Below are positions 1 through 33,060 of a stretch of DNA of 34,002 nucleotides, one piece after another. The stretch is from positions 1-34,002 of the IMG/VR virus record IMGVR_UViG_2623620506_000009; one strand, written 5' to 3'. How positions within the stretch are numbered: the stretch's first letter is position 1; the number at the start of each line of letters is the position of its first letter. The DNA comes from a virus. Its lineage: Duplodnaviria > Heunggongvirae > Uroviricota > Caudoviricetes. Below the pieces are notes generated by a model. It saw nothing but the letters and a program-made list of their open reading frames with translations. It was not told where the DNA came from and did no database searches. Both the position numbers and the translations under genes were made by a program.

Positions 1-726
1 TCACTTCGGGTATGGCTGAACCCTGAACAGCTTGGTGTTTAGGCGCTTTTTTGCGCGCTTATTCAGGAATCTGATGTAGCGATACTGATTAAATTTGTGT
101 ACCACGGCCCGCTCCTTATTAGCCCGTAAATACACACCTCGTTGCCCTCCGCGCTTAATCGCGTTCATCGCTATCTCGTGATACCACTCGCCGTCCAGTT
201 CGTAGAACGTGCTTTCGTGGCTGCCTATAAAATCAAAATTCGACGCCTGATATACCACGCCAGCACGTCCGCAGCGTTCATCTGCAAAGGACTGAACCCA
301 CTCCACTGACGGGTACAGTAACCTGATGGTTTTCAGCGCGTAGCTGATGGCCCGTGATTCAGAATTGCGGGGCATGTCGTCGTGTAACCACATGCGGTTC
401 AGTTCCATATAGCTCCGGTTATCCGTTTCCAGCACAACACGACGCCCTGAGTTGGGGTTAAGGGCATATCCCCACTGAAGAACGCCAACCAGGTCACGTC
501 CGCTGAATACGCCCAGATGCAGGTAGGAGTTATTCACAAAACGGCGGGAATAGTGTTTTGTCTGAATGATTGTGCGGGCCAGCCAGCAGGATATGGTTTC
601 AACGCGCAGCTCCTTTGAACCATAGCCAACAATCCGGCCTTCATACTCAATAACGCAGGGTTTTGTCAGAATGCGTGATTTCTTCTCTTTTCCCACAATA
701 CAGCTCCGTGGGATGCTCTTTGGCAT
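1..726 (-). CDS. mom: DNA modification protein Mom (adenine modification, anti-restriction)
   Basis: ATG at 726 (track ORF starts 4 codons upstream at 738); translation [30 protein letters not shown]... matches recalled Mu Mom along its length; stop TGA at 3..1; preceded by overlapping com. Confidence 0.9.
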
Positions 727-832
727 TCGATATGACAATGTAACGTTTACAGCGAGGGCATTTAATTTCTATATGCTTAAAACCTCCTTTAAACAGTAAT
801 TTATTGCAGTTTTTACAGCGAACAGAGTCCAT
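647..832 (-). CDS. com: Com, zinc-finger translational activator of mom
   Basis: ATG at 832 gives 61 aa [15 protein letters not shown]...IKCPRCKR...THSD: CxxC...CxxC zinc finger very similar to recalled Mu Com; its 3' end overlaps the mom start by about 80 nt as in Mu. Confidence 0.85.
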
Positions 833-859
833 GATTCCCCCTGTGTAATAACCAAACAT

Positions 860-955
860 AATCGCCCGGAGGGCTGGGGGTATTTAATCACAATCGATGC
901 AAACCGACGATCGATATGATGTTATCGATCGTCATAAACTATACATACTGATTAT
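860..955 (-). promoter_or_regulatory. mom operon control region with ATCGAT/GATC repeats (candidate Dam-methylation-sensitive promoter region)
   Basis: Noncoding gap upstream of com. Three ATCGAT hexamers at 893-898, 910-915, 924-929; two of them contain GATC (909-912, 927-930). Mu Pmom is known to be controlled by Dam methylation of upstream GATC sites. Confidence 0.45.
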
Positions 956-1522
956 TTAATCACCGACAGTTAACGCTCTCACCTCGTCCAATATGGACAG
1001 CCGGGAAAGCTGCTCCTTCATTTCACGCTGGCGCTGATAAATCTCGTCATTGCGATCGACCTGTGCCTGTGCCATTGCTGCTGCCAGTTCTTCCAGTTCC
1101 GGCATCGACAGTTTCACCTGTTGATTATCAGCGTCACCCCACGTCATCTCGTTCCGTGCCGTATCGGATTTCGCCGCCATTACTACCGGATAAAGGCGAG
1201 CCAGTGAGCCGGGGCCAGCGTTCCAGGTACGACCGTTCCATTCGAACGTAAATGGCTGCGCTTCCTGTTCTGCGCGCCATGTCTCTATTTCCCGTTTTTT
1301 GGCATCCTTCGCCGCGGCGATAAGTTCAGGCGTAATGGTGAACGGGGCGATTTCGCCCCATTTGCCACTTTGCAGCTCCTGCCAGATGCGCTGGCCTGTT
1401 TCGGCTGTATCTTCTGCCGTGGCTGTGTAGGGGATAGGGGTATCCATCCCTTCAAACAAAACTTCGCAGTCAATTACGCCGCTCTCGAGATAGCGGGGTT
1501 TTTTGATTTCCTGAATATTCAT
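956..1522 (-). CDS. putative tail fiber assembly/chaperone protein partnered with the Stf-like fiber
   Basis: ATG at 1522 (MNIQEIKKPRY...), 10 nt after the fiber stop with GAGGGA SD overlapping that stop; 188 aa; position and size fit a fiber chaperone; family assignment by eye is weak. Confidence 0.55.
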   Translation of the reverse strand: MNIQEIKKPRYLESGVIDCEVLFEGMDTPIPYTATAEDTAETGQRIWQELQSGKWGEIAPFTITPELIAAAKDAKKREIETWRAEQEAQPFTFEWNGRTWNAGPGSLARLYPVVMAAKSDTARNEMTWGDADNQQVKLSMPELEELAAAMAQAQVDRNDEIYQRQREMKEQLSRLSILDEVRALTVGD

Positions 1523-1532
1523 TTGCAGTCCC

Positions 1533-3824
1533 TCATGCAGCTCTGACAAACAGACCGACCAGTGCGCTGTCACCACGAACGCTACCCGCTGCTCCGTTTA
1601 GTGCAATGTAAGCGCCTGGTAAACTCCATTGCCGACATCCTCTTGTCGTTATTAAAGGCGTTGCTGTGGCAACATTTTCCCTGTCACTTGGAATTGCAAT
1701 GGACAGTGGCGTCAGAGACGCCCCCGGGTAGGCATAACCGCGTGTCATGCTGATATTGGTGTCTCCGTCAGCGGTCCCCTGGTATGCAGCCAGAATCAGT
1801 CCACCGACGTCCGGGTTTCCAATACTTGTTGGAGCAACGCGTGAAGACAAGACGTCAGCAAAATCGACGCCTGTTAAATTCAGCTTTCCCCACTCAGGAA
1901 GCGGGCTGCCAGAGCATCGGGTATGATAAACCTCTCCGTTAACACCATAAAAAGTGACCACTTTAGTCTTGCTATCAGGACTGGCATTGCTGGCAACTGT
2001 ACCGGGGATTTTGATATCAACTATCCCCGTAAAAACAACACCTTTAATAATTGGGTTATACCTGTTAACACCGCCGTATTGAACCACCGCGTATCGACCT
2101 GGATTGGTGCTTTTTACCCATTCTACAAACTCTGTTGGCCCGTTTTCGGAACTAAACGATTTTTCTGAGCGGAAGATAGCTCCGTATCCGAATGCACCGG
2201 GTATTGCTAGGCGGCCTTCGGTACGGTCGTAAATATCCTCCTGCACATCCTTTTGTGCTGCACTGCCCAGCTGTGGCGTCAGATTCGTCCATGTAACCGG
2301 AGCGTAGATATCATCGCCACGAATAGTCATGAGTATCCGCCCGTCTTTTCCAAAAAACAGAACCAGCTTTGTTGCTGTCTGGCTGGTTTTGTCGCCCCAG
2401 TTGTTATCCAGCCAGATAATTTCTGTTATCCCGGTTGTTTCTTCAGTTTGTGTGGAAAAGGTGTAATAGCGTCCCGGACGTTTGTTATGGGTAGCTCTGG
2501 CTACAGTTGTCATGTCGCTGGCGACAATTGAATTACCTCCGGATTTCGTCATTCCATAACCATATGCACCAGGAAGTGCAACACAACCTTCGGTATCGTC
2601 ATAAAGCCATTGCTGGACATCCCTCGTGGCTGCGCTTTTCAGTTCGAGTTCATTGCGCATGGAATCCGCTGTGGTCTGTGCCAGCAGTGAACGGGCTTTT
2701 TCCGACAGAGGAGACAGTGAAACATTCCCGTCCTGATTAAAGCACAGAAGATTATCCGCCCGTTCTTCCAGATTGCTGATTGTCGTTAATACGTCACTGA
2801 GTGGTTGTTTACCCGCCAGCGCGTTAGTGACAGTTGTCGCAAAGTTCGGGTCATTACCCAGCGCCGCTGCCAGCTCGTTCAGCGTGTCCAGGGCTTCCGG
2901 CGACGAGTCAACCAGTGCGGCGAGCAGTTTGCGGACAAATGCCGCGTTCGCGGTTTCCAGACCGACTGCATCGTCCGGTGGGGTTGGTGTGGTTGGCGTG
3001 CCGGTGAACGCCGGGCTGTCCAGTGGCGCTTTTGTTTTCGTCTCGTCCATGACGGTTTTGACAGCCTTTGGTGTGGCTGCCAGTTCTTCGCTGTCGTTGT
3101 CTGTATCACTACAGAGTTGCACCAGGCCTTTTTCTGTCGTGGAAGCATTGCTTCCCTTCAGGTCATCAACTATCCGTTGCGCCTCGTCCTTGTGCTCTTT
3201 CGCGTTCTGCTCGCTTTTGGCAGCCGCTTCGGCGCTGGCTTTTGCCTCGCCGGTCAGCGTTGCGGCATCAGCAAGTTTATCGACCGCTTTCTGGACTATC
3301 TTATCGGCATCTTTGACCGCCTGTTCTGCCCGGGCGGCATTCTGGTTTGTTTCAGAGGCCAGCTTTTCAGCTTTCTGCACATTACTCGCAATTTCTTCTG
3401 CATCCTGCTGTATTTCCCCGGCGAGCGTTTCTGTATCCTGACGGGCCTGTTCAGCAGCGGTGGCATGCTCTCCTGCTTTTTCTGCGCTTTGCTGCGCCTG
3501 TTGCGCCAGCTCTTCGAATTTCTTCAGGGCTTCCGGGCGCAGGTCAATATCGGTTGCGCCCAGAAAATCATTCAGCGAACCGTCCGCTGAATCTTCATAA
3601 ACGCGGATGACACCGATTTCTGAAAGGCGCTGTGTGCTTTGTGTCAGGCGAACGCTGTACACACCCGGCAGAACAGGGAAGTCATATTCCCCGTTCTGTG
3701 TGGTGACATGGCTGAAAACACTTTTCAGAATCCCTGCACGGTTGTGCAGGGAGGTCAGTGTAATGGTTGCGCCGCCCAGCGGTTCTCCCGTGGGCGTTTT
3801 AATCACACCTTTAAGCTGCGGCAT
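1533..3824 (-). CDS. side tail fiber protein, lambda Stf-like (763 aa)
   Basis: N-terminus MPQLKGVIKTPTGEPLGG...VYEDSADGSLNDFL parallels lambda Stf N-terminus; Ala/Glu-rich coiled coil; conserved block ELAATPKAVKTVMDETKTKAPLDSPAFTGTPTTP and SPEALDTLNELAAALGNDPNFATTVTNALAGKQP shared with lambda Stf and P2 H; distinct C-terminal region with three [LI]PGA[YF] repeats. Confidence 0.85.
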   Translation of the reverse strand: MPQLKGVIKTPTGEPLGGATITLTSLHNRAGILKSVFSHVTTQNGEYDFPVLPGVYSVRLTQSTQRLSEIGVIRVYEDSADGSLNDFLGATDIDLRPEALKKFEELAQQAQQSAEKAGEHATAAEQARQDTETLAGEIQQDAEEIASNVQKAEKLASETNQNAARAEQAVKDADKIVQKAVDKLADAATLTGEAKASAEAAAKSEQNAKEHKDEAQRIVDDLKGSNASTTEKGLVQLCSDTDNDSEELAATPKAVKTVMDETKTKAPLDSPAFTGTPTTPTPPDDAVGLETANAAFVRKLLAALVDSSPEALDTLNELAAALGNDPNFATTVTNALAGKQPLSDVLTTISNLEERADNLLCFNQDGNVSLSPLSEKARSLLAQTTADSMRNELELKSAATRDVQQWLYDDTEGCVALPGAYGYGMTKSGGNSIVASDMTTVARATHNKRPGRYYTFSTQTEETTGITEIIWLDNNWGDKTSQTATKLVLFFGKDGRILMTIRGDDIYAPVTWTNLTPQLGSAAQKDVQEDIYDRTEGRLAIPGAFGYGAIFRSEKSFSSENGPTEFVEWVKSTNPGRYAVVQYGGVNRYNPIIKGVVFTGIVDIKIPGTVASNASPDSKTKVVTFYGVNGEVYHTRCSGSPLPEWGKLNLTGVDFADVLSSRVAPTSIGNPDVGGLILAAYQGTADGDTNISMTRGYAYPGASLTPLSIAIPSDRENVATATPLITTRGCRQWSLPGAYIALNGAAGSVRGDSALVGLFVRAA

Positions 3825-7256: not shown

Positions 7257-7789
7257 ACGGGCGGTGATGTATTCTCATTGTCGCCGTCCTTATGAATGTG
7301 TTCGATGAATGATTTACCGTTGATTCTGACATCTTCAGTAAATTCACAGGGACCGACGAATTTCATTTGTTTACCGATAATATTCAGCAATTCGTCGGCG
7401 GTGAGATTTACCGTTTTCCCTGAAAAGTTTAATTGTTCTCCTGTGATTTCAATAATTCCGCCTTTCCTTAACGTGATATGTGATTTGCCGTCCTGGTGAT
7501 ACAGCCGGACGTCGCCGGTGGACAAGCCTTTAGGGCGACATCGCTTATCCTCCACCGCGATGGCAACCAGCCCGTCACGCCGTCCGCCCACGGCCAGCAC
7601 GATGGCTTCTGAACCTTCTGGCGGAACGGAAGTAAACCCGTAATTCTGGAAGCGTTCCACATCGTCATCAGTGGCATCTGCCAGCGTCTGGATTTGCAGG
7701 TTCTGCCGCTCCAGACTGTCAGACACCATGCGGACAATGGCACGGTCAACCATCAGCCGCAGACGGCGGGCAATGGCGTTTAATCCCAT
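7253..7789 (-). CDS. baseplate assembly/spike protein (Mu gp45-like)
   Basis: 178 aa ORF; position between hub and gp46-like gene; overlapping coupling. Confidence 0.65.
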   Translation of the reverse strand: MGLNAIARRLRLMVDRAIVRMVSDSLERQNLQIQTLADATDDDVERFQNYGFTSVPPEGSEAIVLAVGGRRDGLVAIAVEDKRCRPKGLSTGDVRLYHQDGKSHITLRKGGIIEITGEQLNFSGKTVNLTADELLNIIGKQMKFVGPCEFTEDVRINGKSFIEHIHKDGDNENTSPPV

Positions 7790-12167: not shown

Positions 12168-12453
12168 GGTCTGCCGGGTGGAGCATTCGCAGCTGTTTCA
12201 TGTCCAGCGGGCCGGGAATGTTGCCGATGGCCGCAACCTGACGGCGCATCATCTCCAGCCCCATCAGCACCTCAGAACAGTAGGCCACCGCCTTTCCGTT
12301 CCCGCCCATGACGACACGTTCTGCGGCCAGTTGCGCATCAATCACATCACTGGCGGTCAGTTCGCGCAGCTTCACGGTTTTATGCAGGGTTTCATCTGCC
12401 GTGCCTTTGCCGGTCAGAAGCCCGTGTTTCAGTTCAAATGTCATTTCAGCCAT
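12058..12453 (-). CDS. tail assembly chaperone (Mu gp41-like)
   Basis: 131 aa between tube and tape measure genes; AAGGTG SD; canonical position of the G/GT-type chaperone. Confidence 0.65.
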   Translation of the reverse strand: MAEMTFELKHGLLTGKGTADETLHKTVKLRELTASDVIDAQLAAERVVMGGNGKAVAYCSEVLMGLEMMRRQVAAIGNIPGPLDMKQLRMLHPADLELISTKAAALDDMLEEVATRGRTDAAGGGTDEPAG

Positions 12454-12454
12454 G

Positions 12455-12811
12455 TCACACCTTCACGCATTTTTCACCGATAAAGTTCGCACTGATGGTG
12501 CCGGAATCCTCGTCCAGCTCCGCCGGGTTATCCGTGGCTGAACCTGTCATCATGTAGTTCAGGCCGTTGTCGCCGTAGAACATCACCGTGACGTCTTCCC
12601 AGCTGCTGATTTCAATCACGTCCATATCCGCTGCCGCCGCAATGGTCACTTTGATGGACGGCGAGGCCATCTTGCTGGAGATGCCCCAGACCTTGCCGCC
12701 GCCCATATGCTGGGTGCGGCTGAAGCCGCCCGGGTTCAGCGTGGATTTCCCCTCGGTTTTAATTTCGCGGCCATTCACGCGAATGGTCGCCATGCCAAGA
12801 ATTTTTGCCAT
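12455..12811 (-). CDS. tail tube protein (Mu M-like)
   Basis: 118 aa directly downstream of sheath gene; AAGGGG SD; synteny. Confidence 0.8.
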   Translation of the reverse strand: MAKILGMATIRVNGREIKTEGKSTLNPGGFSRTQHMGGGKVWGISSKMASPSIKVTIAAAADMDVIEISSWEDVTVMFYGDNGLNYMMTGSATDNPAELDEDSGTISANFIGEKCVKV

Positions 12812-12820
12812 GTGGTCCCC

Positions 12821-14296
12821 TTAAAGCTTGAACTGAATCAGGCCTGCCAGCACACGCAGCTGGTTCACCAGATTCGGGTGGCAGATAAAGTTCAGGCGGT
12901 TTTTATCACTGCTGTCGCGTGTCACCTGAAGCGTGTCCTTGTAATCGCTGAAGTTCTCCACAAGGCCCGCAGGGATAAGTTCGGTCTGGCAGATATCCAG
13001 CAGCTCTGCGGTGCACAGCTTCGGCGTCATCACCGGCTGACCGGCATCCAGTGAGTCCAGCACGTCATCATCCGCCAGCTTGTGGCGCGGATAACGGTTC
13101 GTGAAACGGTTTTTGATGATATAACGGATACGGCCCAGCGTGGCGGGTGACTGCACATCCAGGTACGACACATCCGCATCACCGTACTGGTTAACCCGGT
13201 ACATGGTGATTTCTCGCTCGATACAGACGTTATCCCCGGCGTCCACCATGTGTGTGGCAATGCCGTCATGCAGCAGCAGGTTACGTTCCGGCATATCCCA
13301 GCGAACATTACGCGCAGGCGGCAGAATGCCGGTCAGGACCAGCGTCTGAAGCGGACGCGCCGGGTCAATGGCAAGGTGATACGCTGCCGTTGCGCCGTAT
13401 GACGCGGCCCACATCCACGCAGGGTGCGGTGACAGGTTGGTGCCGATACAGCTAATCAGCCAGTCATTGCGGGTTTCACCAAACGTGCCTGTCTCGCCGT
13501 GTGTGCCACGAAACGCCGTCCACAACTGCGCCTCCATCATTTTGAGCGGCCCCCAGCGGTTCAGCAGTTCATCACGCAGGGTGTTCAGGCTTTTCGTGTC
13601 GGTGAACGGGGCGATGATATCGGTAAACCACTCCGGGCCGATGGCCGCAACGGCATCCGCCATTTCCGGTGTCCCGGTGCCGCCGGTAAACGCGGTGGCG
13701 GTCACCTTCACACCTGCCGGGAAGGCTTCACCGGTGTAGTAGTTCAGGCGAACGTCGGCACCGTTGCCGGTGACGCCGTGCCAGTTCACGGTCAGCTCCA
13801 CGGTATCCGTGGCATCATCCTTCACCGCAGCGGCCACCTGCGTGGCAGGCTTTTTCGTCACCGCATCAGCAATAGCTTTTGCAATATTTTCCTTCGTAGC
13901 CCCGGCGCTCACGCTCACCTGAACGGACACACCGTTAATCAGCAGTGCCACCGTTCCGGCTTCAGTCGCTGTCCCCAGCACGGTCAGCGTGGCTTTTGCG
14001 GCAGCGCCAACAGGTGCGGCAACCGGCATTGCCCAGGTTTCCGTGTACGTGTTGGCACGACGCAGCATTTTGAGCATTTCAGCCAGCATCGACCCTTTGC
14101 CATAAAGCTGGTCTGCCTGGCTGTCACTGGTGATGCGGGTCAGTGACAGGGCGTCTGCGCTGCCGGACGATACCGCATGGCCCATGACCAGAATTTTTCG
14201 GCTTTGCGCGGATGCACCATCCAGCGCCTGTGAATTGTCGATATCGATCCAGACAAGCGGGACGCGGATATCATCAGGAATTGAACCCAGCGACAT
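12821..14296 (-). CDS. contractile tail sheath protein (Mu L-like)
   Basis: 491 aa; size and position upstream of the tube gene. Confidence 0.9.
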   Translation of the reverse strand: MSLGSIPDDIRVPLVWIDIDNSQALDGASAQSRKILVMGHAVSSGSADALSLTRITSDSQADQLYGKGSMLAEMLKMLRRANTYTETWAMPVAAPVGAAAKATLTVLGTATEAGTVALLINGVSVQVSVSAGATKENIAKAIADAVTKKPATQVAAAVKDDATDTVELTVNWHGVTGNGADVRLNYYTGEAFPAGVKVTATAFTGGTGTPEMADAVAAIGPEWFTDIIAPFTDTKSLNTLRDELLNRWGPLKMMEAQLWTAFRGTHGETGTFGETRNDWLISCIGTNLSPHPAWMWAASYGATAAYHLAIDPARPLQTLVLTGILPPARNVRWDMPERNLLLHDGIATHMVDAGDNVCIEREITMYRVNQYGDADVSYLDVQSPATLGRIRYIIKNRFTNRYPRHKLADDDVLDSLDAGQPVMTPKLCTAELLDICQTELIPAGLVENFSDYKDTLQVTRDSSDKNRLNFICHPNLVNQLRVLAGLIQFKL

Positions 14297-16360: not shown

Positions 16361-16364
16361 GACT

Positions 16365-16414
16365 CTGCCTTTTAAAAGGCAGTTAAAAGGGCATTCACAG
16401 CGCCTTTTAACTGC
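16365..16414 (-). terminator. tandem hairpins just downstream of major head gene (attenuator/weak terminator or mRNA-stabilising structure)
   Basis: Perfect palindrome CTGCCTTTTAAAAGGCAG (16365-16382) and longer stem GCAGTTAAAAGGGC/GCCTTTTAACTGC (16379-16414) in the 78-nt gap after the major head stop; only a short U-run follows on the transcript. Confidence 0.3.
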
Positions 16415-16438
16415 GGGTTACAGATTACGGATGACGGG

Positions 16439-17344
16439 TTATGCCGGGGTGGTGATGTACGGGCTGTCCACGATCTCCACATCCTTGTACCAGATGTTGG
16501 AATCGCCGCCGTTAACCAGCATGGCGTCAATAATGAGCTTCGCGTCCGCACGGTTTTTCGGCCCCACCACAAGGGTGGTCGGGCGGATGCCCAGCGGTTC
16601 ACCGTTGGTGCCCTTCATGCCCCGCAGCAACTCATTGGCTTTTTTGTAGTTCTCCACCGTCAGTGCCGCACGGGAACCGACGGCAGTCTGCCAGAAGCCG
16701 AAGCCCGCATTGCAGCGACCGTCCACCCCGTACAGGAACTCGTGGTTTTTGAAGGTGTGCTCGCTGTTCAGATCGTCCAGGGCTTCAAACTTAAAGGCGC
16801 GTCGCGTCTGCCAGATGATGGGTTTCAGCACCTGCGACTCATCAATCAGGAACCACGGTTCGCCCTTGTCTGATGCCGGGGTGCCGACAACGTTGCTGTA
16901 GGTGCCGTCACCCAGCGGGTGGTCTTCATCAAAGAAGTTCTGACCGTCAAAACACAGGGTGTTAAATCCGGCACACAGCAGGGCGTAACACAACTTGTCC
17001 GGGAATACGGCTGTCATACGGCCATAGCGTTCGGCAGTAATGCTGTACTGACCAATCTGGTCATCTTCAATGTGTTCGCGCTTAACGCGAATGGAACTTT
17101 CCCAGAGTTTGTTGGTGATGGTGTAACCATAACCGTCCAGCGTTGCCAGCTGACGCTCACCGACCCATTCTTTGATGTCCGGTAAATCTTTCATCCAGCC
17201 GTAGGTGTTGGAGGCGGACGAACTCGGCACCTCAGAAGCAATACGATTCCACTGCGGTTCGACACCACTCAGTCCACGGGTAAAGGCGGCGCTCAGGCAG
17301 GTGGTCAGCGCGTGAAGGATTTCAGAACTGACAGTCTGTCCCAT
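16439..17344 (-). CDS. major head (capsid) subunit (Mu T-like)
   Basis: 301 aa; follows protease/scaffold gene with 1-nt stop/start overlap; size and position match the Mu major head gene. Confidence 0.9.
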   Translation of the reverse strand: MGQTVSSEILHALTTCLSAAFTRGLSGVEPQWNRIASEVPSSSASNTYGWMKDLPDIKEWVGERQLATLDGYGYTITNKLWESSIRVKREHIEDDQIGQYSITAERYGRMTAVFPDKLCYALLCAGFNTLCFDGQNFFDEDHPLGDGTYSNVVGTPASDKGEPWFLIDESQVLKPIIWQTRRAFKFEALDDLNSEHTFKNHEFLYGVDGRCNAGFGFWQTAVGSRAALTVENYKKANELLRGMKGTNGEPLGIRPTTLVVGPKNRADAKLIIDAMLVNGGDSNIWYKDVEIVDSPYITTPA

Positions 17345-18306
17345 TAGTTATTCTCCTGTTTTGGTTTAGCGGCGAGGAACTCTTCCCCGGTAATACCCAT
17401 GCTGCGGCACATCGCCAGTTCGGCGTCGGTCAGCCTCTGCGCGGGTTTATCCTTGCCCTGGCTGGGCTTGTCGTTGTTCACCAGCGGCTGTGCGCCTCTG
17501 GTGTACTCCGCAAACTGTTTGCGGCCTTCTTCCGTGCGGCAGGTGGCAAGGAACATGTCACGGTTTGCCGGGGCCACTTTTCCGGCTTCGATGGCCGCAT
17601 CCACAAGCGCTTCTGCTTCCTTCTCTTCCAGTTGCTGAAGGCGTTGTTCTGCGGTTTCGGCACGGTTCAGTGCCAGATTGTGGGTTTCCACCGGTACAAA
17701 CTTCGTCAGGTCAGGTGTCTGTGCGCGGTTCAGCGCCACCTGTTCGTTCTCCTGAAGTTGTTTAATGGCGGCCACGGTATCGTCCACCGTGGCAGATTCA
17801 GCCAGCCCAAGCAGGCCGGTGATTTGCACAGGTACTGTCATCGGGTTTTTCTCCGTATTCAGTGCAGGAAAGTCCAGGTTAGGTTTGTTGGTCAGCCCGA
17901 CGCTGGACAGGCGCGTCACCACACCGTCTGCGTCAAAGAAAAACGCCGGGCTGTAATAGCGGTAACGGCGTTCGCTCAGCATCCACCGGGCGTACTCGCT
18001 CCAGACAACACGGCCTTCAATGGTGCCGCTGTCCGTCACGCGCAGTTCTTCCACCCAGCCATACGCCGGGGCTTCATCACCGCGTTGCCCTTTAATTTCG
18101 GTGGCGTGTTCAATGTCCACCGGAATTTTGATGTCGGACGAGCGGGTGACCACCTCATGCGGATTGCGGTTAATCCACGTCCGGCCATCGCGCCCGGTGA
18201 ACTCACCCGCAGGGACGAGTTCAAGCCATTCCGGCAGTTGAGCGGGTGTCAGCTCAGGGATGGGTTCTGGCAGGGAAAAACACAGCGCCAGCAGTTCCGG
18301 TTGCAT
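17344..18306 (-). CDS. head maturation protease/scaffold protein (Mu I-like)
   Basis: 320 aa; ATG 18306 with GGAGA SD; C-terminal coiled-coil/scaffold-like region; position before major head gene. Confidence 0.85.
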   Translation of the reverse strand: MQPELLALCFSLPEPIPELTPAQLPEWLELVPAGEFTGRDGRTWINRNPHEVVTRSSDIKIPVDIEHATEIKGQRGDEAPAYGWVEELRVTDSGTIEGRVVWSEYARWMLSERRYRYYSPAFFFDADGVVTRLSSVGLTNKPNLDFPALNTEKNPMTVPVQITGLLGLAESATVDDTVAAIKQLQENEQVALNRAQTPDLTKFVPVETHNLALNRAETAEQRLQQLEEKEAEALVDAAIEAGKVAPANRDMFLATCRTEEGRKQFAEYTRGAQPLVNNDKPSQGKDKPAQRLTDAELAMCRSMGITGEEFLAAKPKQENN

Positions 18307-18520
18307 GTCAGTCTCCGTCGTTTGGGGTTACCGACGGTCAGTATGCGGAAGGCAGAAAAAAAGCCGGATTTACCGGCTTCACTGAAAACGGGAAGAACAC
18401 CCCCTTCAAAACCCCTTCAAAAACGCCACAGCACCTTCAAAAAAGTCAGAATGCACATTCACGCCATCAGAATAAAAAACGCGTTTCTGATGCGTTTCAG
18501 GGGGATTTACGGCGGGAGGG
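18307..18520 (-). promoter_or_regulatory. repeat-rich central intergenic region (candidate late promoter and strong-gyrase-site equivalent)
   Basis: 214-nt noncoding gap between F-like and I-like genes, near the prophage midpoint; three CCTTCAAAA direct repeats (18403, 18414, 18434), GCGTTTC direct repeat, AAACGCGTTT palindrome, plus the terminator hairpin. Confidence 0.35.
18356..18381 (-). terminator. rho-independent terminator after the F-like gene
   Basis: Minus-strand transcript reads TGAAGCCGG-TAAAT-CCGGCTTTTTTT: GC-rich stem plus U7 tract; 26 bp identical to the terminator after mor. Confidence 0.6.
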
Positions 18521-23096: not shown

Positions 23097-23396
23097 TTAC
23101 GGTTCACGACAGCCCCCGTCTTCAGTTCCCGGTGTTTTCAGACCGGCGTATATTTCTTCGCGAACGGAGCGGATATCCTTACCCAGCAGCTTCCACAGCC
23201 GCGCACATGCCGGTGATGAACGCAGGGCACGTTTCATGGGGGTATCCAGTGCATCCGGGTTCCAGGGCTTTCCTGTATGTTTTTCGTATGCACGGACAAT
23301 GGCGTTTTGCTCGATATCTGCCAGCACAAGGCAGTACGCCAGCTGCCGCACGACGGCCCGTTCTCCGCGACTTAACGGCTTCAGTTTTCGGGCCAT
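23097..23396 (-). CDS. hypothetical protein (99 aa)
   Basis: ATG 23396 with GAGGGA SD, 2 nt after upstream stop; basic protein; no family recognised by eye. Confidence 0.5.
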   Translation of the reverse strand: MARKLKPLSRGERAVVRQLAYCLVLADIEQNAIVRAYEKHTGKPWNPDALDTPMKRALRSSPACARLWKLLGKDIRSVREEIYAGLKTPGTEDGGCREP

Positions 23397-26076: not shown

Positions 26077-26102
26077 AAAAAAAGCCGGATTTACCGGCTT
26101 CA
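26077..26102 (-). terminator. rho-independent terminator of the early operon, directly after mor
   Basis: Minus-strand transcript TGAAGCCGG-TAAAT-CCGGCTTTTTTT begins 5 nt after the mor stop codon; identical 26 bp to 18356-18381. Confidence 0.65.
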
Positions 26103-26106
26103 TTGA

Positions 26107-26556
26107 TTAAGGGCGTCGTGGCGGACGACGAACGGGGTGAGGCAGGTTCGGGGAGGGGTAAAACAAATCCGGCTGGTATTTATTGCGCTCCAGACGTCGC
26201 ATCCGTTTGATGGCCTTGTAGACGGTTTTATACGTCACTCCGTAACGCTGAACCAGTTCAGGAATATTATGGCCGTTAAAATCACGCCAGATACGCATAT
26301 CCCGGACAAGATTCTCCAGAATATTCCCCCTCGGAACATAAACCTGCATCCCGCCGATATGGCGACAAATCGCCACAACCAGCTCAAGGGAATGAGCAGG
26401 GTCTGCGCCAATCCGGGCCAGCTCTTTACGCAGCAGTGCGTTCAGTTCAGAAAGTAACGCCGGATAAGCGGTGTTTTCCTGGTAATCATGAAGATATTCC
26501 AGAACGCTGTCGTCCCGGAGGTCTTCGAATAAATCCTGCTCTTTCATCTGTTTCAT
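26107..26556 (-). CDS. mor: Mor/C-family transcriptional activator (middle operon regulator Mor by synteny)
   Basis: 149 aa; conserved Mor core PALLSELNALLRKELARIGADPAHSLELVVAICRHIGGMQVYVPRG and C-terminal HTH YGVTYKTVYKAIKRMRRL; ATGA-coupled to gemA; followed by terminator. Confidence 0.85.
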   Translation of the reverse strand: MKQMKEQDLFEDLRDDSVLEYLHDYQENTAYPALLSELNALLRKELARIGADPAHSLELVVAICRHIGGMQVYVPRGNILENLVRDMRIWRDFNGHNIPELVQRYGVTYKTVYKAIKRMRRLERNKYQPDLFYPSPNLPHPVRRPPRRP

Positions 26557-31033: not shown

Positions 31034-31071
31034 CTGAATAACCTCGTAATTAAATTTTGTTTAAACGTTAA

Positions 31072-33060
31072 TTAAATGGCTTTTTTACGTCTGTTCTGTT
31101 CCAGAATATCCAGCGAATGATTCAGATATTCATCACGATCAGTTTCATATTCATCATCGGGTTCCTGGTATTTCACCTGCACCGTGTTACCGGAAGGCCG
31201 GAAAATACCAACAACCCTTGATTCTGGCGCTGCTGGTTCGGCTATCTGCGGCAGCAGTTCAGCAACTTCCAGCGCGTCCATTTGCTTCTGCGCCTTAATG
31301 GCTGCTTTAGTTGCAGATTTCAGTTGTTTCTGGCGGCGGCGATATTCACGACCTGCCGCAGCATCATTAAATGCAACAGGGGCCAGACATTCCGCTTCAC
31401 AGATAAACCGACCGTCCAGGGTGTAGCAATAAACCGTGCTGTGTAGCTGCTGTGGATCAAACCTGACCACAACTTTTTTCACTCCGGCATTCATTAATGC
31501 CATGTTGTAATAAACGTTTTTCGCGCCTTTAAGGGAGCCGCCAACTTTAAGCGTAAACTCGCCTTTGCGTGAAACGTTCACCGCCTCAGCAGGCAGTAAC
31601 AGCATCCGTTTTTGTTCTTCGGTTGGCTTACGCACAATCGTTCTGGCGTATTCACGCTCGAAAACATCATCAAACGAGAGTTTGCCCCCGCACATTTCTG
31701 TTTCACGTCCTGTTCTGGCATTGAACATCGCCACACCTTCGGCAAGGGTTTTCAGAAACAGCTCTGCATCAACAGCACGGTCGCCATAGTTATCAGGTTT
31801 TGCCTGCGGATTTGGCCCCGTATATGCACCAGCCAGTGCCGGATGCTTATCAACGTATTCCTCAAGCCCACCAACACCGAAAGCACGTTCAACAGGTTTT
31901 GCCTGGCCCCAGCCTTTACCGGCAACAACGCTTGTCCAGTGCATTTTCGCGCCCATCAGTAAAAACAGTCCCTTTGGATCGTCCTCTTTCACCTTAAAGC
32001 GGTAGCGATTGGGCGCGCCCCCCGTCAGCCATTTATTCGCTGCACCACGGGTGTTATCAATGGTGATGTGAAAATCCTCCGGGATGCCGTAGCGTGTCAC
32101 CACATCCATGAACGAGAGGCGAATTGAATCGATGTTCTCGCTTACATCGCAGCGCCAGCCCAGAATTTTTCGGGTTTTCACATCCTGCCAGAACCATGTT
32201 TTCGGGCGGATCACATCGCCGTTAAACCAGCGTACAAAGACGTTATGCAGATAACCGTCGCCGTTGATCCACTGCATGGCGTCCAGGTGTTCCACAGTTC
32301 GCTGCTGTGCCGGTATCAGATGCATCAGTGCATGTTCACCTTCACGGCAGGCAACAACCATTGCCTCATCCAGTTGCTGAATCCGGCGAAAGGCCGTGGC
32401 ACGGGAGGGAATACTCCAGCCATGCTCGCGGGCTGCCAGCTCCAGACGCTCATAACATTTGCGGAAGGCGGGTTTTTCTGGTCGCAGATAATCTGCAATC
32501 AGAAACTGCCAGGCATCCTCGTCAAATTCACTTTTGTGAACATTGCGACGAGATGCACCACGTCCATCAACAAGTGCTGCCGCCCAGTCAGGCTTCGCAA
32601 ACTTCTGTACCTGGTAATACTTGTCCCGCAAAGTGGATGCGCTGACCTGGTAATGCCCTGCAACGGTCGCAAAAGCCGTTTTCGTTGAAATCCCCTGGTT
32701 CAGCATTTCGTCTGCAGCCTGAACCGCAGGCAACCATTTTTCAGCAAGTCTGCGCTGGGAATTGCTGGCGTTATCCCATTTGCTCCACAGTGCCTCACGA
32801 TCATAATCATGGGCTTCCAGCGTGGGGCGGGCGATTTCAAAACGGCCCTGGCTTGTTTCAATACCTCCTTGTTGCAATAAAATTTCAGCACGTAATGCAA
32901 CAGGAAATGATTTGATATTGAATTCAAATGATACACCTTTAGTACCTGTAACTTGCCTAAACACCCAGCCTTCTCTTTGTGCCTTACGTGTAATGTTAGT
33001 TGCTTGCTTTGGCAAACCAGCAAAACCAAGCAATTCTTTCGCTGTATACCACTCTTTCAT
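31072..33060 (-). CDS. A: DDE transposase A (MuA), D108-type N-terminus
   Basis: 662 aa; from about residue 70 ([26 protein letters not shown]...) matches recalled Mu A through the catalytic core and C-terminus (...[19 protein letters not shown]); N-terminal 70 aa differ from Mu as in D108. Confidence 0.95.

Follow-up and report, generated by a model that had tools for sequence, protein, structure and literature searches.

The window, which is the whole stretch of 34,002 nucleotides analysed here, is spanned by a complete Mu-like prophage read on the minus strand. Its left edge is the right end of the prophage by the Mu convention and holds com and mom, both on the minus strand; the window ends at the mom stop codon, and the prophage's own right end is not visible. 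Upstream of com on the minus strand lie a DUF4376 tail-fibre assembly gene (1522..956) and then a tail-fibre gene (3824..1533). The far end of the window carries a Mu-type repressor, a ner-like gene, transposase A, B, Gam, GemA, and a Mor-family gene, which is directly followed by a GH108 endolysin gene. The com-mom end has the following features.

1..696, minus strand: mom, GTG start at 696 and stop at 3..1, encoding a 231-aa DNA-modification enzyme (Pfam PF25680, E 1.9e-75)
647..832, minus strand: com, encoding a 61-aa zinc-ribbon translational activator (Pfam Zn_ribbon_Com PF10122, E 2.5e-7) that aligns with Mu Com
691..713, minus strand: translation-inhibitory stem, UCCCACGG / UUGUGGGA, predicted to sequester the mom GGAG RBS and GUG start
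833..852, minus strand: com leader, with the RBS AGGGGG at 842-837, read directly
853..862, minus strand: hypervariable patch at the expected -10, with TATGTT (860-855) and GATTAT (863-858)
864..874, minus strand: GC hairpin GCCC-TCC-GGGC, standing in place of the Mu -35/T6 spacer region
879..894, minus strand: C-box remnant (16 bp), ATTGTGATTAAATACC against Mu ATTATGCCCCAATAAC, 10/16 identical, the G/C-rich spacer having turned A/T-rich
893..899, minus strand: mutated third Dam site, CATCGAT against Mu GATCGAT, with the 13-bp offset of Mu from site 2 kept
906..933, minus strand: palindrome with 11-bp arms, GACGATCGATA-ACATCA-TATCGATCGTC, containing GATC site 1 (930-927) and site 2 (912-909), 18 bp apart as in Mu
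928..942, minus strand: distal OxyR-like half-site, ATAGTTTATGACGAT, with 8/10 matches to ATAGnTnnnAnCTAT, ending in GATC site 1
956..1522, minus strand: tail-fibre assembly gene (DUF4376, Pfam PF14301), the last gene of the tail cluster

A preliminary description of this DNA had proposed a Mu-like com-mom module in which the two genes overlap. This was borne out by the two Pfam assignments (PF10122 and PF25680), by the 89% nucleotide identity of com and mom to Mu, SfMu, and D108 in blastn, and by an overlap of 50 nt between the com 3′ end and the mom start, as in Mu. The 61-aa com product is likewise annotated by PGAP in a relative from a complete E. coli genome (L007). In Mu, the G segment and gin lie upstream of com, whereas here the tail-fibre assembly gene adjoins com, and a tblastn search of the window with Mu Gin found no gin. 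In blastn searches against phages, similarity began at window position 822, inside com, and none was found upstream of 822. The range 860-955 that was singled out at first is the gap between mechanical ORFs; because the com start lies at 832, behind the RBS AGGGGG, the true intergenic stretch is 833-955.

A search for Mom returned 4 loci among the genome contigs and 45 in IMG/VR, and 40 distinct com-upstream sequences from Mu, one E. coli genome, three GTDB genomes, and IMG/VR contigs were aligned. Type A is Mu-like, with gin upstream, three GATCs, the box ATTATGCCCCAATAAC, a T6 run, and TAAGAT. Type B, to which the window belongs (17 distinct sequences), has the tail-fibre assembly gene upstream, a two-GATC palindrome, and CATC at site 3. 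Eight further lineages mostly have three GATCs at 18(19)/13 spacing. Of 5426 complete E. coli genomes, 49 (about 1%) have the upstream region, and 284 blocks of the assembly index list the identical Mom protein. Six assemblies with the identical Mom carry the prophage at six different insertion sites. About 25-120 nt past the mom stop codon, relatives L138-L143, which have the identical Mom, contain a terminator-like hairpin ahead of the Mu right-end sequence (...CGTGCGCCGCTTCA), beyond which the host flank differs in all six; this points to recent transposition of this prophage type.

The com leader sequence TGGTTATTACACAGGGGGAATC is common to most type-B sequences, and 12 of the 20 leader positions vary somewhere in the set. 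An in-frame ATG at window 857-859, 27 nt upstream of the com start, would yield a 70-aa Com; it is probably not used as the com start because it has no RBS and is present in some type-B relatives and absent from others.

The coding part of the module appears to be well maintained. The dN/dS of mom was 0.03-0.06 in comparisons with Mu and two type-B relatives, and by this measure mom is under strong purifying selection. In Mu, Com opens an inhibitory stem over the mom start. The corresponding stem was predicted in the window and in nine of the ten other sequences folded, Mu among them; L038 folded differently, although its stem sequence is identical. No variation was seen in the CCCAC and GUGGG arms across the 40 aligned sequences, nor in GAGCAUCCCAC, the putative Com target sequence adjoining the stem (40/40). 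Judging from this conservation, the Com-dependent translational lock appears intact. In a comparison of L042 with the window, synonymous divergence was 0.76 in mom and 0.18 in com, a contrast that suggests a recombination breakpoint inside the module.

In the com upstream gap, ATCGAT starts at 893, 910, and 924 and GATC at 909 and 927 (plus strand). The preliminary description had reported three evenly spaced ATCGAT hexamers, two of them embedding GATC; the hexamers and the GATCs were confirmed, and the spacing, at 17 and 14 bp, is only approximately even. Three of the 10 ATCGAT hexamers found in the 34 kb of the window lie within 31 bp (P about 4e-4 under random placement; 0/300 Markov simulations). 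GATC density was 16 per kb in the gap versus 1.2 per kb in the window, and the clustering of the GATC pair 18 bp apart was not significant on its own, there being three other pairs within 60 bp in the window. GATC is under-represented window-wide, with 40 observed versus about 129 expected from base composition, and the L007 prophage has 48.

The first two hexamers, reading towards com, form the arms of a perfect 11-bp inverted repeat that had been missed in the earlier description. In both Mu and the window, the centre of the dyad lies between sites 1 and 2. The dyad has arms of 7 bp in Mu, extended to 11 bp in the window, and as an RNA hairpin it is predicted to fold at -16.5 kcal/mol in the window versus -8.5 in Mu. 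Within type B, the arms are polymorphic at 1/22 positions, compared with 15/44 com third-codon sites. Across lineages, 89% of the cells in the alignment of the dyad are paired and four pairs have changed on both sides, which exceeds all shuffled and slid controls; such conservation with compensatory changes would fit either a symmetric protein site or a hairpin. The third hexamer behaves differently. It is confined to the sublineage of the window, including the six assemblies with the identical Mom protein, while other type-B sequences read CATCGG, CATCAT, CATCAA, or CATCAG at this position. All 17 type-B sequences have CATC at site 3, which is no longer a Dam site because its G has changed to C. 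Thus, where Pmom has three GATCs at offsets of 18 and 13 within ~35 bp, the window has two at 18 and a third that reads CATC. The hexamers had been put forward as the control unit; in the alignment, the conserved unit is instead the two-GATC palindrome, which is accompanied by a mutated remnant of Mu site 3.

Both a direct comparison and a MAFFT alignment showed the gap to be positionally homologous to the region upstream of mom in Mu (Mu, ATATAGAAAACGACGATCGAATCAATTAAATCGATCGGTAATACAGATCGATTATGCCCCAATAACC; window, ATGTATAGTTTATGACGATCGATAACATCATATCGATCGTCGGTTTGCATCGATTGTGATTAAATACC). The ATAG element, site 1, site 2 (offset 18), and the site-3 ATCGAT (offset 13) are all in register with Mu; ATAG, GACGATCGA, ATCGATCG, and ATCGATT.TG align with Mu at identical offsets of 18 and 13 bp. 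The GATC-bearing repeats are therefore positional homologues of the Mu Dam/OxyR sites 1 and 2, as the preliminary description had supposed. Mu Pmom has three Dam sites, of which two (sites 1 and 2) are left in the window. Downstream of site 3, the window differs from Mu by an 11-bp deletion and has neither the T6 run nor the TAAGAT -10. Aligned with Mu Pmom, then, the Dam/OxyR module proved homologous, and site 3, the C box, and the core promoter proved lost or drifting.

We compared the OxyR-like half-sites with the consensus ATAGnTnnnAnCTAT (PMC2909390). By plain consensus counts, the distal half-site of the window scores 8/10 and the proximal one 5/10, versus 7/10 and 7/10 in Mu; the ATAG element of the distal half-site is at the same distance from site 1 as in Mu, and by these counts the promoter-proximal half-site appears degraded in the window. 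The Mu half-sites, at the ATAG-to-site-1 and site-2-to-site-3 positions, are 31 bp apart. This spacing suits the extended binding mode of reduced OxyR. The Dam/OxyR switches of agn43 and of Salmonella/P22 gtr likewise have GATC embedded in OxyR-type half-sites. In gtr and at Mu sites 2-3, a 13-bp GATC pair lies inside one half-site (PMC2909390), and the equivalent pair in the window is broken through the loss of site 3. In contrast to the agn43 and gtr switches, the sites in the window are overlapped by no promoter and there is no sign of phase variation.

The elements expected next to this region are largely gone. No match to the C box with three or fewer mismatches was found anywhere in the window. 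A C box overlapping the -35 region is likewise missing from the window, where the box has an altered spacer and a left half that lies within a hypervariable patch (4/6 positions polymorphic within type B). At the expected -10, 8/10 positions are polymorphic within type B, compared with 15/44 com third-codon sites. These two hypervariable patches flank GATTAAATACCCCCAGCCCTCCGGGC in type B, every sequence of which has the GCCC/GGGC arms of the GC hairpin. All 23 non-type-B sequences have a -10-like hexamer scoring at least 4.9 bits at a distance of 22-23 nt downstream of the 16-bp box (TAAGAT, TAGAAT, TAAAAT, TAAACT, TACTAT, and TATCCT), compared with 0/17 in type B; the best score of the window at 21-24 nt after the box was -0.9 bits. 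Within type B, the best -10-like hexamers vary in sequence and position (TATGTT at 18 nt in the window, TATCCT at 20 nt or TATTAT at 28 nt in others), and the majority of the sequences lack one. A sigma-70 consensus scan of positions 600-1300 found no promoter, and a search of positions 1-1600 against Rfam returned nothing. Mean pairwise diversity was 0.108 in the gap versus 0.101 at com third-codon sites, so that most of the gap evolves near the synonymous rate. Given that no -10 stands at 22-23 nt and that the box-left and -10 patches are the most variable parts while the palindrome arms vary at a single position, the activator-dependent promoter looks decayed and the palindrome looks constrained.

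The other half of the Mu arrangement, the activator, was examined at the far end of the prophage, where three features are relevant.

18362..18383, minus strand: Mor box with dyad and T7 run, AGTGAAGCCGGTAAAT, an exact match upstream of the head protease/scaffold gene (18306..17344)
26083..26104, minus strand: Mor box with dyad and T7 run, AATGAAGCCGGTAAAT, between mor and the endolysin gene
26107..26556, minus strand: mor, the sole Mor/C-family gene (Pfam Mor PF08765, E 3.6e-30)

The preliminary description had noted no evident C gene, and this holds: the sole Mor/C-family gene is a Mor orthologue, with 63% identity to Mu Mor versus 32% to Mu C, and searches of the prophage with Pfam, PHROGs, and tblastn (Mu C and Mor queries) found no second or divergent family member. 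PGAP annotation of L007 also has one Mor-family gene and no C. Among long IMG/VR contigs, 7/7 of type B have a Mor orthologue and no C match, and 7/7 of type A carry C. In a set of 63 Mor-box loci with a Mor gene, those with a Mu-like Mor (87-99% identity) have an adjacent C wherever the locus extends far enough, while those with a 54-65% Mor have a single family member.

Exact 16-bp Mor boxes occur in the window at 26089-26104 and 18368-18383. Their AGTAA-AGCCGG-TTAAT pattern fits the published Mor site, a 5-6-5 element with a G/C-rich spacer located at -51 to -36 (PMC4390567, PMC4287176). Downstream of mor, the window sequence AATGAAGCCGGTAAATCCGGCTTTTTTT is almost the same as that of Mu Pm (AGTAAAGCCGGTTAATCCGGCTTTTTTT), which has AGTAAAGCCGGTTAAT in the same context after mor. 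By hand count, a -10-like hexamer stands 22 nt after the box in three promoters including Mu Pm (TATCCT, CACCAT, and CATACT), and the 18362-18383 element has its CATACT at the same 22-nt distance as Mu Pm. The two elements of the window are identical to each other, and each also resembles an intrinsic terminator of the preceding transcript. Upstream of com, no Mor box was found with three or fewer mismatches. At that threshold, the window contains nine matches to the Mor-box pattern versus 1.06 expected; the seven imperfect ones are mostly intragenic and include 7406-7421, 23370-23385, and 31071-31086 (minus strand). The match at 23370-23385 (ACTGAAGCCGTTAAGT) coincides with a gene boundary and may represent an additional, weak Mor site.

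As the two Mor-box elements lie upstream of the endolysin and head protease genes, they imply a two-step cascade in which Mor would be used directly for the late genes, without C. In Mu, Pm drives the middle operon that encodes C, whereas the elements in the window appear to be placed directly at late genes (lysis, head, and tail). Late genes under direct Mor control have been described for Mu-like phages of Pasteurellaceae (PMC4553209). SuMu, phiMhaMu2, and 3927AP2 lack a middle operon and C, and in them mor is directly followed by a GH108-type endolysin gene (PMC4553209); the window is alike. On the other hand, no typical com-mom is reported for 3927AP2, the one phage of the three on which the paper comments in this respect (PMC4553209), whereas the enterobacterial lineage of the window has a Mor-only cascade together with a Mu-type com-mom. 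Some relatives (L007 at 12420-12899, L092, L093, L096, and L123) have an extra gene of ~159 aa between mor and the Mor box/endolysin gene, which is absent from the window; judged by eye from untranslated DNA, its N-terminus looks hydrophobic and signal-like.

Taken with the decay of the promoter region, we propose, with a probability of about 0.5, that com-mom in this C-less lineage is transcribed late as the distal end of a Mor-driven head-tail operon, across a partly decayed homologue of Pmom. Early genes would lead to Mor and Mor to the late genes, with no C protein involved. The operon would start at the Mor-box promoter near 18.36 kb, run through the tail-fibre assembly gene, cross the 123-nt gap into com-mom, and end at a hairpin terminator just downstream of mom, so that com-mom would no longer depend on an activator-dependent promoter of its own. 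Com would then open the conserved inhibitory stem over the mom start and Mom would be made, as the conservation of the stem suggests. Read-through is deduced here from the fact that neither a promoter nor a terminator could be recognised. The genes between 18306 and 956 form a contiguous run, terminator-like matches along this stretch are at chance level, and the terminator scan found no terminator-like match on the minus strand in the gap; in relatives, mom is followed by a terminator-like hairpin (AACAGCGG..CCGCTGTTTCGTTT) placed just ahead of the Mu right end. Behind the major head gene, the gap at 16361-16438 (minus strand) contains two nested hairpins (CAGTTAAAAGG..CCTTTTAACTG, then CCTTTTAAAAGG), which may be a partial terminator or an RNA-stability element. 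Under read-through, the Dam/OxyR palindrome would be a residual modulator. It may, speculatively, bind OxyR when unmethylated and damp transcription across the site, or its RNA hairpin may serve as a partial attenuator or stabiliser. A bolder version, to which we attach a low probability, has the palindrome re-used as a methylation-sensitive elongation gate within the Mor-driven late operon, acting as a protein roadblock or an RNA attenuator.

Several observations weigh against read-through. Activator-dependent promoters are hard to recognise by sequence, the constraint on the palindrome is hard to explain once control of initiation has gone, and three alternatives stay alive because the hairpin is followed by GGTTTG, because the sublineage of the window has TATGTT, and because the gap shares a TAAAT half-site with the Mor box. 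The last of these would make Mor the activator of a cryptic gap promoter, in which the old C box has been remodelled with a Mor-type half-site TAAAT (885-881) ~21 nt upstream of TATGTT. Both Mor boxes of the phage have TAAAT as right half-site, 22 nt before the -10-like hexamer, compared with 21 nt in the gap (hand counts), and GATTAAATA is nearly invariant in type B. A parallel comes from L048 (IMG/VR 2906144441_000004), another Mor-only lineage, which has ACTATGCTTAATAAAT upstream of com and TAAGAT 23 nt later. Nevertheless, only ~7/16 positions of the gap element match the Mor box by hand count, and it was not recovered with three or fewer mismatches. Its spacer is A/T-rich where that of Mor sites is G/C-rich (PMC4390567), the 16 other type-B sequences do not conserve the -10 candidate, and in Mu neither Mor nor C activates the promoters of the other (PMC4287176); we regard this explanation as unlikely. 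The com-proximal promoter of L048 itself looks intact and of the activator type, with a box distinct from both the canonical Mor box and the Mu C box; the Mor box that L048 has elsewhere is the canonical one and differs from it. About equally improbable is a weak autonomous sigma-70 promoter with TATGTT (4.9 bits) or GATTAT (2.9 bits) as -10, needing no phage activator and controlled by OxyR/Dam and by Com at translation. A weak local promoter at TATGTT, fairly -10-like and 18 nt past the box remnant, is possible for the window, the distal OxyR-like half-site (8/10) and two GATCs are retained and constrained, and many assemblies contain the exact variant, inserted at different sites. Yet it would have no -35 and no extended -10, escaped the consensus scan, and depends on a hexamer missing from most type-B relatives, whose mom is intact and under purifying selection. 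Constitutive expression would also be costly in a lysogen, unregulated Mu mom being reportedly cytotoxic (PMC3378877).

Slightly less probable still, in our judgement, is that the palindrome serves mainly as an intrinsic terminator or attenuator closing the tail operon, which would leave com-mom at a low leak or effectively silent. The 11-bp stem is stronger than its 7-bp counterpart in Mu, and a short T stretch follows it (GGTTTG, or GTTTT in L007), such that a sizeable fraction of transcripts could terminate there. However, the short T tract is interrupted and does not pass the terminator scan, Mu has the same dyad as a protein-binding region upstream of a mapped promoter, a better terminator lies after mom, and the dN/dS of mom speaks against its being silent. 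A chance or purely historical origin of the ATCGAT/GATC cluster, with no present function, would suit the poor conservation of the third hexamer within the lineage and the near-synonymous rate of most of the gap, but we consider it very improbable in view of the rarity of the triple hexamer (P about 4e-4), the low variability of the palindrome arms relative to synonymous sites, and the retention of a two-GATC dyad, with compensatory changes, in almost all lineages compared.

By gene content and translational control, com-mom of this prophage is a member of the Mu com-mom family, and the alignment places the gap as a variant of the known Mu mom control region and not as a new system. The features that define the Dam/OxyR region are present only in part, and those of a C-dependent late promoter are missing: there is no C gene, no C box, and no -10 at 22-23 nt. 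The preliminary description had asked how the Mom module is activated without C. The question is a real one, and the read-through reading narrows it without settling it; since the interval may hold no autonomous promoter, asking which factor transactivates it may be misposed.

Mu mom, a toxic anti-restriction gene, is a textbook example of layered control, in which Dam, OxyR, C, Com, and Fis all take part. Its control elements are well established (PMC3378877, PMC2582627) and the Mor-only cascade has already been described (PMC4553209), while a Mor-only cascade combined with a Mu-type com-mom and selective promoter decay was not described in the literature searched. The value of the finding is incremental, and it makes a testable prediction, namely late com-mom expression via read-through of a Mor-dependent operon. 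If the palindrome did act as an elongation gate, Mom would still be made only from methylated, replicating phage DNA despite the decayed promoter. The lineage is in effect a natural experiment in which the activator layer is gone and the gene is still strongly selected, and the retention of only the methylation-site palindrome and the translational lock points to which layers of control are indispensable.
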